63,991 nucleotides of DNA, filler included, from Bonamia ostreae (GCA_040357525.1; 33 parts of 33 records of this genome joined end to end with filler, not necessarily neighbours in it), one strand, 5' to 3'. Positions 2,145 to 62,063 are shown, counted from the whole stretch's first letter. Notes: generated by a model not told the origin, from the letters alone. Made by a program: numbers and translations.

Positions 2145-3737
2145 CGTTATAGTCGACTTTCGCGATCAAATGCGGTCGATAAAACGGCCTCAAAAACAAG
2201 TCCCTCTTCAAGTGCATGTCCTCCGGCAACGTATTGAAGACCCGTTTCCTCTTCAGACATTTTTTGGGACTTCTCTCGTCTATGTTAACTTTGATTTCCA
2301 GCAATTCGCCAAAATCGATCAGTTTTTCCGTTTTCGCCATTTTCTCATTTCTCGATTTTTCGGCTTTTTCGGCGTTTTCAGCTTTTTCTGAAATTTGTTT
2401 TTTCCTCAAATTGCGCCTGAAACTCCAAAAATTGGGACCGGCCCAATTCATAAAATCTTCAGAATTTTCAAAGTTCTCGTCGTAGAGCTCATCCGTCAGA
2501 AACAAGTCGTTTTTCGTCTTTTCTTTCACCGCTTCGACATTTCCGGTTTTCTGCTTTTCCGAAATGTCCTCGAAATCCTCGAAATCCTCAAAATCTTGTT
2601 CAACATTTCGATCGAAATTTTGATCGAAAACCGATTTCCGGTCTTGGCCCGGCACATCGCTTTCCGACACAAAAACCGAGTCGCCGCTTAAAGCTCGGTC
2701 TATTTCCAAACGGATTTGAGCGCTCAAAGTTCGGTCGCCGTTTTTGAGATCGGAAATTTGTTTTTTGACGAGATTGATCTCTTCTTCAAAGATCGGCAGC
2801 AACGGACACAACTGCTGATCTCTGGAAGTTCTGGCGACGTCGTCCAAGATTAGATCGAATTCGCTCGTCGCCAAAACTTTTTCTCCTTTTTCGGCGGCGG
2901 ACGCGTTTTCGAGTTTTATTTTCTCCAATTTGAGGTCGCTGTCGAAGACGATCTGCAGATTTTCGCCGATTTGGAGGTTATTCAAGAGCAGTCCCTTCGC
3001 GCCGCCCTCGTCGAACGCGGAGGCCATTTTGAAGAACATCGGGTCGACTTCGTAGCTGAGATCCTTTTCGGAGAGCGCGGCGGCTTTGGCTTTGTCGGTT
3101 GTCAAGAGCGTGACCACTTTCGAGTTCCGTTTGTTCTTCGGGGTCGTTTCTTGTTGTTGCGACTTTCCGTCTTTCTGTTCTTGGTCTTCTTCGAAGCGGC
3201 TGCTTAAGCCGCCGAGGACCTTGAACATCTGCGAGTGGACCGAGTCGACGCGGCTCGAGTAAATTTTTATGCTCGCGTCCAAGGTGTTTCTGCGAAATTG
3301 AAGTTGAAAACGAGGCTTTTCTGAAGAGAGAAGACGATTTTGTGACTTTTTCTTCGGCGGCTTTTTTCTCGTTGGAAAGGAGGTCGTCGATGTAGTCGAT
3401 CAAGTTGATGGACCAAGTGTTCTTTTGGGTGATTTTGCCCGCGGCGGCGAGACGAATCGTTTCGGTGTAGAGTCTTGAGAGTTGCGCGTCGCTGAGAGTT
3501 TCCTTGTCGTCTTCGACCTGTTTGAAGGGCGACAGGAAGGGCGCGGAGTTTCTTTTTTTGGTTTTTGTTGGAGTGGATGGGTTTTTTCTGATCGGAGCCA
3601 AAAGTGAGGCTCGTTTGACAGAAAGTCTCCGTTTTGTCTTTTTACCGATTTGGTCGTTGTTCGAGAGGACGACGTTGTCTAGAACTTTTTTATTGCGGAA
3701 AATAACCTGAGCTTAGTCTTCGTCTTTTATTTTCCAT
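2145..3737 (-). CDS. NCAPH: Condensin complex subunit 2 (CAP-H/Brn1), 5' part; 22-nt introns at 3685-3706 and 3290-3311
   Basis: Motifs KITQKNTWSINLIDY, FRKAS-NTLDASIKIYSSRVDSV (restored by splicing), VDPMFFKMASAFDEGGAKGLLLNNL, WAGPNFW, LPEDMH. Confidence 0.92.
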
Positions 3738-4126
3738 TAATTTAATAATTAGCTTTATTCGGTTTTACGAATTTGGATGTTATATCTAGTTCTTTAATCT
3801 CGGAAAGCACTGCTTTNNNNNNNNNNNNNNNNNNNNNNNNNNNNNNNNNNNNNNNNNNNNTTAATTAATTAANNNNNNNNNNNNNNNNNNNNNNNNNNNN
3901 NNNNNNNNNNNNNNNNTCTCTTCGGAATATTTCTCGAAAAAAATTTGCAATTAAAATTTTAGTTCATTTTTTATTTTTGCGAAATAAATTTTTGTTCTTA
4001 TATTTTAGCGAAATTTCTGTTCTTTTTTAAAAAGCGCTTATGTTTCGTTAAATACCAAAAAAGAGGATTTCTTACTCAAGAAACTCACTGTGTGCAAATA
4101 TTATAAATAGTCTATAAAAGCAAAAT

Positions 4127-5447
4127 ATGGACAATAGCTTTCTGGTCATTTGTTTGGACAGAGACAAAACACATTCTTTAAGCCCATTATATAATAGTCA
4201 GAAAACCCCTAACTCCAAACAAAAAGAAATATCAGAAAAAATTGATTATATTGGCGGCAACAAAACACATTCAATAAAATCAAATTCAAACGAATATGCA
4301 GAGAGACTTTGTAAGTTAATAAATTTATATTACGACAAATACGAATTCGAAGAAAAACATTTAGTTCTAGTTCATGTTTTAAAATTTATTTTAGTCAAAT
4401 CAAGAAAAAGAAACAACCTCAAAAATAGAAAAATGGCTAAAAATGAATTTTAAAAACGTAAATTTGACAACAATACAAATGAATTCTTCAAGCGGTCTTC
4501 TATCTCTCACAAATGGCTCTTTGACCAAAAGGGAAAACAAACCAGCTTCAGAGGATTTCCACTCAAACACTTTTATAGCTTTAAAAATATCAATAATGGT
4601 TGAAGAATTGAAAGAAAAAATAAAATTGAAAAACATGAAAAATGTCTCCAAATTTGTCTCGGTGCGTTTTGCTGATTTGGCGAAAAGAGACTTTAATTTC
4701 GAATTGATTAATCTCGTTAATAGTCATTACAAATTTCGTTTGCACAATTTTGGATTTGTTTTCTTCAAAAATTCAGATCACTCGTTTTTAGGAAAACATT
4801 GAAATTTTGACAATTTTTATGCAATAACCAAATTCAGCAATTTTTGCAAAATTTATCGAAAAACAAAAAGAGTTTTGGTCGACAAACAAATAAATCCCTT
4901 TCGAACTGCTTCCGAAATGCCAAAAGAAACACAATTGGTTGTAAAAGATATGAAACAATACATATCTTCTTTCAAAAATGTTCAAAACATTTAAATTTTA
5001 AAACTTGACATTTTAAAATTCGTGAAATTTAAGGCTTTCAAAAAACCGAAAAACGAAATAACAGATTTTTGGGTTCGCAAATCAAAACAATTGGTTTTGT
5101 GTGTCATTTTGACCTGGGACAAAAATTCAGGTTATCGTTTCGAGCGGGGTGCCAACTTGGAGGTGTCTCTTCCCGCTGGCGCTATATGCGCAGAACGAAA
5201 CGCGATCAGCTCTGCCTTTTCGAAGAATCCATTATTAAAAAGAAAGGATTTTAGAAGAATAGCGGTTTGCAGTGTGACATTGGAAAAAGGCAAAGGCGAA
5301 AACAATCCTGTTTTGCCCTGTGGCGTTTGCAGAGAGGTTTTTAAATTCTGAATGAAGTGGATCGTAAAGATTTGCTTTAACAACGAAAATTTTCGGTTGG
5401 TTAACTTTGAATCGAGTGATTGCGAACGAGTGAGAGAGAATTTATGA
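4127..5447 (+). CDS. Cytidine deaminase-like protein with long N-terminal extension (multi-exon; 5' structure uncertain)
   Basis: GANLEVSLPAGAICAERNAI...PCGVCRE-WIVKI zinc-deaminase motifs; 21-nt intron 5337-5357. Confidence 0.75.
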
Positions 5448-5874
5448 TTTTATAAAAATTTGCATTTTTTTAAACCGAATCCTCGCGTCTTTAGCAACTT
5501 TACTTTCAAACCTTTTTATTTTCCAGAATATAATTACAAAATTTTCGTCGATGTTTATTATTTTTTTAATTCAGATGCACCACAAAATTTAAAAAAACAA
5601 ACATAATCTTTTCAAACCAAAGAAAACGATTATTCAACAAAGGTTATTTTTGGTCAATAAAGATTTAATCAAATCTCTTGACTTATTCAATATTGTAAAA
5701 ACGCTTTCAGAAATAGTACAAAAAATATAAAAAATGTAATGGTACAATATTTCTAATTACAGGGCTTCTTATAANNNNNNNNNNNNNNNNNNNNNNNNNN
5801 NNNNNNNNNNNNNNNNNNTTAATTAATTAANNNNNNNNNNNNNNNNNNNNNNNNNNNNNNNNNNNNNNNNNNNN

Positions 5875-6384
5875 CAAAAACTTCTTCTCATAAGACGTAG
5901 ATCTGAATCGGTGTCAACAAAAACGATCATATCCGCCAAGTCTCTTACATCTTTATCGTAACAAGCCAGAATCCCTTCTATTATCAAAACGTCAACCGGC
6001 GCTAGCGTTTCGGTTTCTTCCAATCTTTAATTCGAAAATTTTTACCTGGAATGCGTTCTAAAATCGTACAAAGGAATTTGCGTTGTCTCTCTTTTCTTGA
6101 TCGACTCCAAATTTTCTTTCATCAATTTCCAATCGAAAGAATCTAATTTTAGCGATTTGCAAACCGGGATGGTCAAAATTATATTTCGAAATGTTTTCCA
6201 TTTCTTCTTTTGACGGCGTTCTGTAATAATTGTCGAGCGAAATAATCCGAACCGATAATTTTTCCAATCCGCGCACGATTTGTCTTTTTTTGGTTTAGCA
6301 ATAAAACTCGCAAACTGTAGTTTTGCCGCTGGCCGTGCCGCCGTTCATCAGTATGATTAAAGTATGTTTTTTGGAAGGCGTCAT
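5875..6384 (-). CDS. UCK: Uridine-cytidine kinase, 5' part; introns 6284-6307, 6143-6164, 6025-6045
   Basis: Spliced translation [13 protein letters not shown]...ISLDNYY...YNFDHPDSFDW...[11 protein letters not shown]...VLIIEGIL...[13 protein letters not shown]. Confidence 0.92.
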
Positions 6385-61000: not shown

Positions 61001-61159
61001 GGATCGGCGCAATGACGCACGACCCGCTTAAAAAAATTACGCTGTTGTGCGGGCAAAAAAGCCGGCACACGCCGTTTCACATCTGCCGAGGTGCCATGGC
61101 AGTGCTCTTCGACGACCCACGCTCTTCTTGATCGGCGGAGGGTCCAGCGATGTTTTGCA
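61001..61159 (-). ncRNA. U1: U1 spliceosomal snRNA with a variant 5' splice-site recognition arm
   Basis: In order on the minus strand: helix H CGCTG/CAGCG; SL1 GACCC/GGGTC with loop GATCAAGAAG; SL2 CTGCC/GGCAG with loop ATGGCACCTC; SL3 TGTGC/GCACA; Sm site AATTTTTTTA; SL4 GGGTCG/CGATCC; ~159 nt. Confidence 0.9.
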
Positions 61160-61177
61160 GAATAGGCAAATCGCTAA

Positions 61178-61187
61178 TATTTATATA
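61178..61187 (-). promoter_or_regulatory. TATA-like box about 26 nt upstream of the U1 5' end
   Basis: TATATAAATA on the minus strand in the 71-bp U1/NOC3 gap. Confidence 0.5.
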
Positions 61188-61230
61188 TCGAGACTTGTCC
61201 TCAAATTTATGGGATTTTTAAAATTTAGCA

Positions 61231-62063
61231 ATGTTTAAAAGCGAATCTGATGTTAAACGGGTGGCCGCTGCTGTCATCGGCAATCCAAGCGAACACGTTT
61301 CCACATTGACATTAAGTTTAAAGATTTGAAAGCTTTGGTAAAGTTTGCTATTAAGTTCGGGGACTCTAAGTTAGGTCTAATGTCGATATTATGTCTAACC
61401 CAGGTGTTCAGAGACATTTCGCCTTCCTATCCTGTCGTTCGCGACACCGACGACAGTAAAAGCTCTAAACGGCTTTCGAAATCTATTATGGAACGTAGAT
61501 TATTAGAGGACTCGATCCTTAGACATTATAAAAACTTTGTCTTCTTTTTAATTTCAAACGTACAGAAACCGAAAAGCAAATCTCAGAAAAATAAGTCGTC
61601 CGGGAACATCTCCAAAACGAGCATTTATTCATTGTGCTCTTTAATCGATTCTCTTTATTCCTTCAACTTTAGCGAGAAAATAGCAAAATCCCTCATTTCC
61701 CGTATGAGCGCCGAGAAAAACCGTCCTTATTTAGCAAAATTGATTTCTGACACGCTTTCCAATTTGGCCAAACGAGGAGAAAAAGTATCTCTAATTGTAA
61801 CTAAAACGATCTTGTCAAAACTGAACAAAAAATCTTTTAAGAACAGTAAGCAGTCCTTTAACCAAATTAAAGTCATTTGCGCTTTCAAAAGTCGCAAAAC
61901 GGTTTTCGACGAAGAAAGTCATTTTAGCAAAAACTACAAAAACGATTGTCGTCTCGTTCAACAAAACGTCTTAAAATTCCTAATCGCCCTTATCCAACAC
62001 AACTTTTTTAATAAAGAGGAAAGTCTTGTTGTCATAACACATCTAAAACAGTTTTTTTTGGCA
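61231..62063 (+). CDS. NOC3L: Nucleolar complex protein 3, N-terminal part; 20-nt intron 61297-61316
   Basis: VAAAVIGNPSEH...LTQVFRDISPSY...LSKSIMERRLLEDSILRHYKNFV...YSFNFSEKI. Confidence 0.78.

Follow-up and report, generated by a model that had tools for sequence, protein, structure and literature searches.

The 63,991-base stretch of the Bonamia ostreae assembly considered here (hereafter the window) carries protein-coding genes interrupted by GT..AG segments, most of them about 20 nucleotides (nt) long, and with a probability of roughly 0.9 we take these segments to be genuine GT-AG spliceosomal introns of this haplosporidian. The ends of 14 of them, which we call the exact set, are fixed by a transcript-like contig, by the adjacency of residues in homologous proteins (four introns, placed with PRP19, RPA70, MAP4K4/STK4 and UCK2) or by deposited gene models (four introns), and all 14 run from GT to AG on the sense strand. 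These GT-AG introns are removed from the transcript. A first-pass annotation, made from the sequence alone, had already interpreted segments of this kind as spliceosomal-type introns, and the present data bear it out, as they are missing from the transcript-like contig, present in DNA, and their removal restores both the reading frames and the continuity with homologues. Segments that it had quoted as examples are marked "quoted earlier" in the lists below.

Introns missing from a transcript-like contig

Read-level comparison was carried out for contig 9 of the window alone, with the DNA runs X1 and X2 and the transcript-like run X3. The gene on this contig is Nramp-like, the Pfam Nramp profile matching the exons on both sides of 16792..16813. 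A 1195-nt X3 contig, lying on the minus strand, is devoid of six segments of 20, 21, 22, 23, 24 and 41 nt, all of which are retained in contigs of both DNA runs. In the minus-strand sequence each of the six has GTTT at its start and AG at its end, and upon their removal the stop-free frame measures 486 codons, as against 173 in the unspliced sequence.

16792..16813, minus strand: intron of 22 nt, GTTTAA..TTTAG, Nramp-like gene; out of X3, in X1 and X2
16546..16586, minus strand: intron of 41 nt, GTTTTA..CAAAG, containing TACTAAT; skipped by X3 (CT..AC on the plus strand), in X1 and X2
16419..16442, minus strand: intron of 24 nt, GTTTTC..TCAAG; out of X3, in X1 and X2
16329..16351, minus strand: intron of 23 nt, GTTTTT..AAAAG; out of X3, in X1 and X2
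15995..16015, minus strand: intron of 21 nt, GTTTTG..AATAG; out of X3, in X1 and X2
15818..15837, minus strand: intron of 20 nt, GTTTTA..TTAAG; out of X3, in X1 and X2

Furthermore, the X3 contig reaches no further than the coding region and does not cover the flanking stretch 17255-17378, through which the DNA contig continues. Since it lacks both the six sense-strand GT..AG segments and this DNA-covered flank, the X3 contig behaves like a transcript. The same absence would be expected if the segments were eliminated at the DNA level, in the manner of the internal eliminated sequences of ciliates, with X3 representing DNA of a processed nucleus; the RNA nature of X3 being a guess, this explanation has some purchase. 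Against it, the segments end in GT..AG and not in TA..TA, both DNA runs keep them, all six are in the sense orientation of a single gene, and the DNA contig extends over the flank that X3 leaves bare at the coding-region ends. Long frames are moreover obtained with the standard stop codons, giving no indication of a ciliate, and we regard elimination as highly improbable.

Contig 9 additionally harbors two elements of about 33 nt (15659-15693 and 17088-17120), which recur in otherwise different contigs of both DNA runs, the first in five or six contigs and the second in one per run. In one contig of an RNA run the first element (15659-15693) is followed by a poly(A) run. Both could be short dispersed repeats, or else represent a common 3'-end element.

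Introns fixed to the base by homologous residues

In four genes on other contigs the residues of homologous proteins place the intron ends exactly.

57599..57618, plus strand: intron of 20 nt, PRP19 (quoted earlier); tblastn high-scoring segment pairs (HSPs) abut at the gap
41132..41151, plus strand: intron of 20 nt, RPA1 (quoted earlier); RPA70 residues abut
27109..27128, plus strand: intron of 20 nt, STE20-type kinase (quoted earlier); MAP4K4 and STK4 residues abut
6025..6045, minus strand: intron of 21 nt with a GTAAAA donor, uridine-cytidine kinase; UCK2 residues continue around a split codon

For three of four PRP19 homologues one HSP extends to 57598, its last residue being 80 (or 75), and the following HSP takes up the next residue at 57619, and the Pfam Prp19 domain picks up at position 16 past the gap. 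The RPA1 exon ending at 41131 reaches residue ~215 of human RPA70, and the exon from 41152 begins at residue 216 (1fgu_A). Across the gap in the STE20-type kinase, residues 18-44 of the MAP4K4 chain lie upstream and 45-70 downstream, the corresponding join in STK4 being 50|51. In the uridine-cytidine kinase the UCK2 chain is matched over 87-118 upstream, followed by one split codon and then by 120 onward (121-166 aligned from query residue 2), with Pfam PRK positions passing from 97 to 102 over the junction. By this continuity of UCK2 residues the GTAAAA start, previously listed as an exception to the donor rule, is both real and exact.

Breaks in genes might alternatively be indels of assembly or sequencing, or mark frameshifted pseudogenes: the assembly is highly fragmented, with contigs of ~1.85 kb, and removal of a short segment easily repairs open reading frames (ORFs) in A+T-rich DNA. 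That account is scarcely credible given that the same segments occur in two separate DNA runs, that on the coding strand every one of the 14 exact gaps runs from GT to AG, and that the gap ends fall at adjacent homologue residues.

Introns in deposited gene models and the identity of the contigs

Two ORFs of the window correspond to deposited B. ostreae proteins. A 480-aa ORF in contig 2 shows 99% identity to MHBO_002876, annotated as hypothetical protein, partial (P0001 here) and located on a contig of 1858 bp, the runner-up among the 120 matches listed being at 33% identity; for a 260-aa ORF in contig 7 the sole match returned, at 100% identity, was MHBO_002882 (P0121), located on a contig of 1853 bp. 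When mapped back, these two proteins skip four segments.

3290..3311, minus strand: intron of 22 nt, condensin subunit 2 (quoted earlier); P0001 mapping
3685..3706, minus strand: intron of 22 nt in the condensin gene, following codon 10, GTTATT..AAAAG; evidence from the gene model (P0001 mapping)
13077..13097, minus strand: intron of 21 nt, DHH/DHHA2 phosphoesterase gene; P0121 mapping
12856..12927, minus strand: intron of 72 nt, DHH/DHHA2 phosphoesterase gene, GTTAAA..TAAAAG; P0121 mapping, tentative

Over 3290..3311 P0001 reads ..FRKAS|NTLDAS.., the tblastn frame switches at this point, and the Pfam Cnd2 profile covers positions 45-116 upstream and 126-533 downstream.

The deposited MHBO_002882 starts at an internal Met (13152), and two GT..AG segments upstream of it would lengthen the frame by ~90 codons (13098-13516, minus strand).

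13365..13384, minus strand: candidate intron of 20 nt upstream of the deposited DHH start; ORF joining
13281..13303, minus strand: candidate intron of 23 nt upstream of the deposited DHH start; ORF joining

Pfam and PDB searches with the upstream exons of 20-28 aa defined by these segments returned nothing. The extended frame includes a stretch, ..CDLDS.., which we take to resemble the first motif of the DHH family and which Pfam and PDB did not support. The deposited model may miss two tiny introns and the N-terminal exons that they separate.

For source assignment the 33 contigs of the window (1,828-1,858 bp each, with 32 identical N-spacers between them) were sorted by trinucleotide composition and by the observed/expected ratio (o/e) of CpG. 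We obtained 21 parasite-type contigs (2-5, 7-12, 14, 17, 19, 21, 22, 24, 26, 27, 29, 30 and 32) with a CpG o/e of 1.23-1.95, and 11 host-type contigs (1, 6, 13, 15, 18, 20, 23, 25, 28, 31 and 33) with a CpG o/e of 0.32-0.95; contig 16 was placed in neither group and excluded from later counts. The trinucleotide that best separates the groups is GTA, strongly depleted in parasite-type contigs (13.6% of GTN vs 29.9% in host-type ones). The matches of contigs 2 and 7 identify the first group as the haplosporidian oyster parasite B. ostreae (Haplosporida, Rhizaria), and the earlier view that the small-intron contigs are those of a protist is thereby confirmed, two of them encoding ORFs 99-100% identical to deposited proteins of this species.

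We also considered that the small-intron contigs come from a tiny-intron animal parasite, a dicyemid or a myxozoan. Dicyemid and myxobolid introns measure 22-27 nt (PMC13644364, PMC6543705), one contig has a collagen-repeat ORF and one run bears a mollusc label. The near-complete identity of the contig 2 and contig 7 ORFs to B. ostreae proteins speaks decisively against this, the next condensin matches among those listed are from plants and protists at <=33% identity, and the donor of dicyemids and myxozoans is GTa, not GTT. An origin from either animal group was dropped on the strength of the B. ostreae matches. The collagen-repeat ORF (242 aa, 25386-26111, minus strand; Pfam collagen triple-helix repeat, E=6.7e-13) is on contig 14, a parasite-type contig with a CpG o/e of 1.95 that it shares with the STE20-type kinase exons; the match may be a low-complexity effect, because the opposite strand is also open over the same stretch.

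The host-type contigs have ORFs matching dermatopontin (exon fragment at 1-294, plus strand), a P2X7-type tail (37074-37331, plus strand) and a tyrosine kinase (47279-47578, plus strand), which fits an animal host and suggests an admixture of host animal DNA in the parasite assembly. As to the internal control named in the first-pass annotation, that host contigs mostly use GTA donors, two host exon ends could be read by eye, one with GTAAGG (near 37331) and one with GTAAAC (near 257), and we leave this control out of account. The unassigned contig 16 encodes a reverse transcriptase (29340-31112, minus strand; 591-aa ORF, RVT_1, E=1.7e-34), and its composition, with 21% G+C and a CpG o/e of 1.19, fits neither group well.

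Lengths and the donor consensus

Beyond the exact set we distinguish a supported set of 25 introns, which includes the two candidates upstream of the deposited DHH start (13365-13384 and 13281-13303) that later lacked Pfam or PDB support, and a total set of 37, made up of these 25 and 12 that depend on ORF joining only. The figure of about 30 introns given by the first-pass annotation is plausible in this light. Lengths in the exact set are 20, 20, 20, 20, 21, 21, 21, 22, 22, 22, 23, 24, 41 and 72 nt, with 12 of the 14 falling in 20-24 nt, and 33 of the 37 introns in the total set fall within 18-26 nt. Most introns measure 19-24 nt with a mode of 20-22, and a minority is longer (41, ~49 and 72 nt). 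The ultra-short size claimed earlier holds for the bulk of the exact introns and not for all of them, and a narrow length class of 1-2 nt, of the mikrocytid or heterotrich type, is not observed. The introns have an A+T content of 61-91% and mostly end in AAG or UAG; in the supported set A occupies position -3 in 18/25 (background 44.5%, p=0.005). By eye, single introns contain CTAAC, TACTAAT or CTAAT. Some with a length divisible by 3 carry in-frame stops, and we make no claim on these because discovery through ORF breaks favors such introns.

The general eukaryotic 5' splice-site consensus is GTRAGT, with a purine at +3. The introns described here depart from it: T stands at +3 in 13/14 of the exact set (p=6e-4 against a background GTT of 48.1%), and 10/14 begin with GTTT (p=2e-4 against a background of 23.7%). 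Leaving out the four model-based introns gives 9/10 and 8/10, respectively; all six transcript-type introns have GTTT (p=2e-4); the supported set has T at +3 in 24/25 and GTTT in 18/25; and in the total set T is at +3 in 34/37. Introns of the U12 type begin with [AG]TATCCTT, a start found in 0/37 of the listed intron sequences.

It is conceivable that the tiny introns are real and that GTTT is a product of T-rich composition and biased picking instead of a recognised signal, as GTT makes up 48% and GTTT 24% of GT sites in the parasite contigs, the non-exact introns were picked among alternative GT..AG solutions, and positions +5 to +8 show A/T richness only. We consider this unlikely in view of the excess of +3 T and of GTTT in sets assembled independently of the donor, which persists without the deposited models, and of the uniform GTTT start of the transcript-type introns. 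The GTTT(T) donor with T at +3 in most introns, as initially described, stands as a bias above composition.

Introns supported by domain profiles or changes of frame

Nine further introns of the supported set were placed with domain profiles or by a change of frame between homologous blocks.

50138..50159, plus strand: intron of 22 nt, RIO kinase; Pfam RIO1 profile at 63 where the exon ends and again from 66 at residue 2
32260..32282, plus strand: intron of 23 nt, WD40 protein (quoted earlier); contains CTAAC, WD40 profile split
7173..7193, plus strand: in-frame intron with a stop, 21 nt, PQ-loop protein (quoted earlier); PQ-loop repeat on either side
5337..5357, plus strand: in-frame intron of 21 nt, cytidine-deaminase-like gene (quoted earlier); support from the 5' side only
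41353..41372, plus strand: intron of 20 nt, RPA1; approximate join, not exact
61297..61316, plus strand: intron of 20 nt, NOC3 (quoted earlier); support from the 3' side only
57762..57780, plus strand: intron of 16 or 19 nt, the second in PRP19, GTTTTTTGCTAAACAG[TAG]; both lengths fit
45519..45537, plus strand: intron of 19 nt, astacin-like protease; Astacin position 38 at downstream residue 5, upstream exon without match
51971..51994, minus strand: intron of 24 nt, RICTOR-like gene; RICTOR_V position 11 at downstream residue 1, upstream exon without match

In the WD40 protein the exon past the intron opens at position 24 of the 39 of the profile, and WD40 repeats are found in the upstream exon. 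The frame of the PQ-loop gene, if left unspliced, stops after 4 codons. In the exon upstream of 5337..5357 the similarity to deaminase families persists as far as the exon boundary, the downstream exon amounting to 29 aa. At the second RPA1 intron, Rep_fac-A_C position 2 falls at downstream residue 4 and chains of RPA70 homologues begin at residue 1-2. In NOC3 the residue directly past the intron corresponds to position 21 of the NOC3p profile, where the match restarts, and the 25-aa exon upstream gave no relevant match in PDB or Pfam searches. In PRP19 the homologous blocks before and after 57762..57780 are read in frames 1 and 2, respectively. All eight segments quoted in the first-pass annotation are present, at the coordinates and with the sequences it gives, as GT..AG segments of 20-23 nt; for seven the repair of the gene break by their removal is backed by evidence beyond the ORF itself, and for the one in the deaminase-like gene by the upstream deaminase exon only.

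An actin-related gene on contig 8 needs an intron of ~49 nt between Actin positions 134 and 141 (14829-14922, minus strand), the sole frame-compatible GT..AG solution seen beginning with GTCAAA. This segment may be the "GTC" exception mentioned earlier.

Candidates from ORF joining and the weight of the evidence

The remaining 12 members of the total set are candidates from ORF joining.

4376..4394, plus strand: candidate intron of 19 nt
9131..9149, plus strand: candidate intron of 19 nt
20747..20769, minus strand: candidate intron of 23 nt
22292..22313, plus strand: candidate intron of 22 nt, after a DUF4379 exon
39102..39119, plus strand: candidate intron of 18 nt
14404..14423, minus strand: candidate intron of 20 nt, GTAAAT, actin-related gene; Actin positions 269-345 in the downstream exon
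14491..14509, minus strand: candidate intron of 19 nt, actin-related gene
45111..45130, plus strand: candidate intron of 20 nt
45324..45346, plus strand: candidate intron of 23 nt, GTAATC
21098..21123, minus strand: candidate intron of 26 nt
51462..51493, minus strand: candidate intron of 32 nt
39857..39892, plus strand: candidate intron of 36 nt, after a DnaJ exon

ORF chaining overcalls: in the transcript-checked gene, at a low penalty, it found 4/6 introns correctly and got two wrong, a different, wrong segment having been called at 16419..16442. This gives a fair idea of how far inference from sequence alone can be trusted here. A codon-bias gene finder met with too weak a codon signal and misplaced the boundaries.

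Several points weigh against reading the segments as spliceosomal introns with a distinctive donor. Of 1,240 cases of GT..AG segments of 18-26 nt, 115 (9.3%) connect long ORFs, as compared to 6.3% for all dinucleotide pairs; this rate, 1.5-fold over the mean and third of the 256 pairs, is weakly specific and too blunt as a test. When ORF chaining was run over all 256 terminal dinucleotide pairs, AT-rich and stop-like pairs ranked at the top and GT-AG was unremarkable, although this test is uninformative because AT-rich pairs won. Candidates outside the exact set, having been picked by eye or by ORF repair, may lean to GTTT, and the background of the parasite contigs is itself rich in such sites (GTT 48.1% of GTN, GTA 13.6%, GTTT 23.7%). 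Within the exact set 4/14 introns depend on deposited gene predictions, and in the DHH gene a 24-nt alternative (12851-12874) is also frame-compatible in place of the 72-nt intron. The transcript-type evidence concerns one gene only and comes from a run, X3, whose RNA status is guessed; run X5, labelled as RNA ("mollusc metagenome"), covers only the 34-nt repeat at 15665-15698 and is uninformative on splicing or habitat. The sample, finally, is a single 64-kb window.

Comparison with other ultra-short introns

Ultra-short introns as such are established, sister lineages of B. ostreae included, and are not a new kind of thing. In the mikrocytids Mikrocytos mackini and Paramikrocytos canceri a small number of introns, 224 per genome, of 16 nt (217/224) or 17 nt and with a conserved sequence have been described, none of them in transporter or enzyme genes, and of the small nuclear RNAs (snRNAs) only U2, U4 and U6 are listed there as found (PMC10245619). 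Mikrocytids too are Ascetosporea, rhizarian parasites of invertebrates with A+T-rich reduced genomes, whose extremely short spliceosomal introns share common sequence features (PMC10245619). They differ in intron length, 16-17 nt as against the 19-24 nt of B. ostreae, where some reach 41-72 nt, and in that the B. ostreae introns also occur in transporter and kinase genes. For Ascetosporea at large, intron numbers and sizes are reported as drastically reduced (PMC13746701). Chlorarachniophyte nucleomorphs have introns of 18-21 nt and heterotrich ciliates of 15-16 nt (both cited in PMC10245619). Both likewise combine GT..AG ends with ultra-short lengths in a narrow range, in lineages unrelated to B. 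ostreae. The donors in both are of the GTA type.

Myxobolid myxozoans, with a median intron of 22-27 nt, and Dicyema, whose introns are short, have a 5' signal reduced to "GTa", and a weakly conserved run of A before the AG has been proposed as their branch site (PMC13644364). They resemble B. ostreae in length range, in parasitism and in their weak splice signals (PMC13644364), and differ in being animals and in having GTa in place of GTT(T).

The B. ostreae genome paper mentions "canonical introns", on average 2 in each mRNA, the portion of its text covered here giving no intron lengths or donor consensus (PMC11069148). The deposited proteins already omit tiny introns, of 22 and 22 nt in one and of 21 and 72 nt in the other. 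As public models hold some of the introns and mikrocytids have shorter ones (PMC10245619), the novelty is smaller than the first-pass annotation assumed. We found no printed description of intron length or of a GTTT donor in Bonamia or haplosporidians in the literature covered, most subscription journals and supplements lying outside it. The haplosporidian size class seems to be undescribed, and the same applies, still more notably, to the pyrimidine-rich GUUU donor. We know of no other lineage for which a pyrimidine at +3 has been described as the rule.

A possible mode of recognition

Removal of these introns would be the work of a U2-type spliceosome, of which PRP19, encoded in the window, is a component; PRP19 was not seen among deposited B. 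ostreae proteins of 150-2000 aa, itself weak evidence. The short intron would probably be recognized as a whole, with its length forming part of the signal, and the branch adenosine is expected among the A-rich bases ~5-9 nt upstream of the AG. On what is generally known of splicing, a stretch of uridines over +3 to +5 should pair poorly, if at all, with the canonical 5' end of U1, so that either the U1/U6 partners would have changed or the 5' site would be recognized largely without U1. This raises the possibility, which we put forward tentatively and hold to be somewhat less probable than its opposite, that the spliceosome of B. ostreae, and perhaps of all haplosporidians or Ascetosporea, uses a GUUU(U) 5' site unpairable with canonical U1 beyond the GU, through a re-tuned U1/U6 surface or through U1-independent recognition of ~20-nt introns. 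Scanning the window with Rfam gave 0 matches, snRNAs included; a tRNA scan of the window also gave 0 matches.

Implications

B. ostreae genes will be broken up by gene finders and read mappers that keep a default minimum intron size and a GTR donor model, and the possibly truncated deposited model in the window may matter for gene-based work on this oyster pathogen. On the mechanistic side, introns of ~20 nt test the minimal size of a substrate for the spliceosome. A lineage with U at +3 and +4 in nearly all of its donors would demonstrate that splicing can mechanically do without the +3 purine found almost universally elsewhere. This raises a concrete question that is answerable from existing data, namely what form the U1 and U6 snRNAs of B. 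ostreae take.

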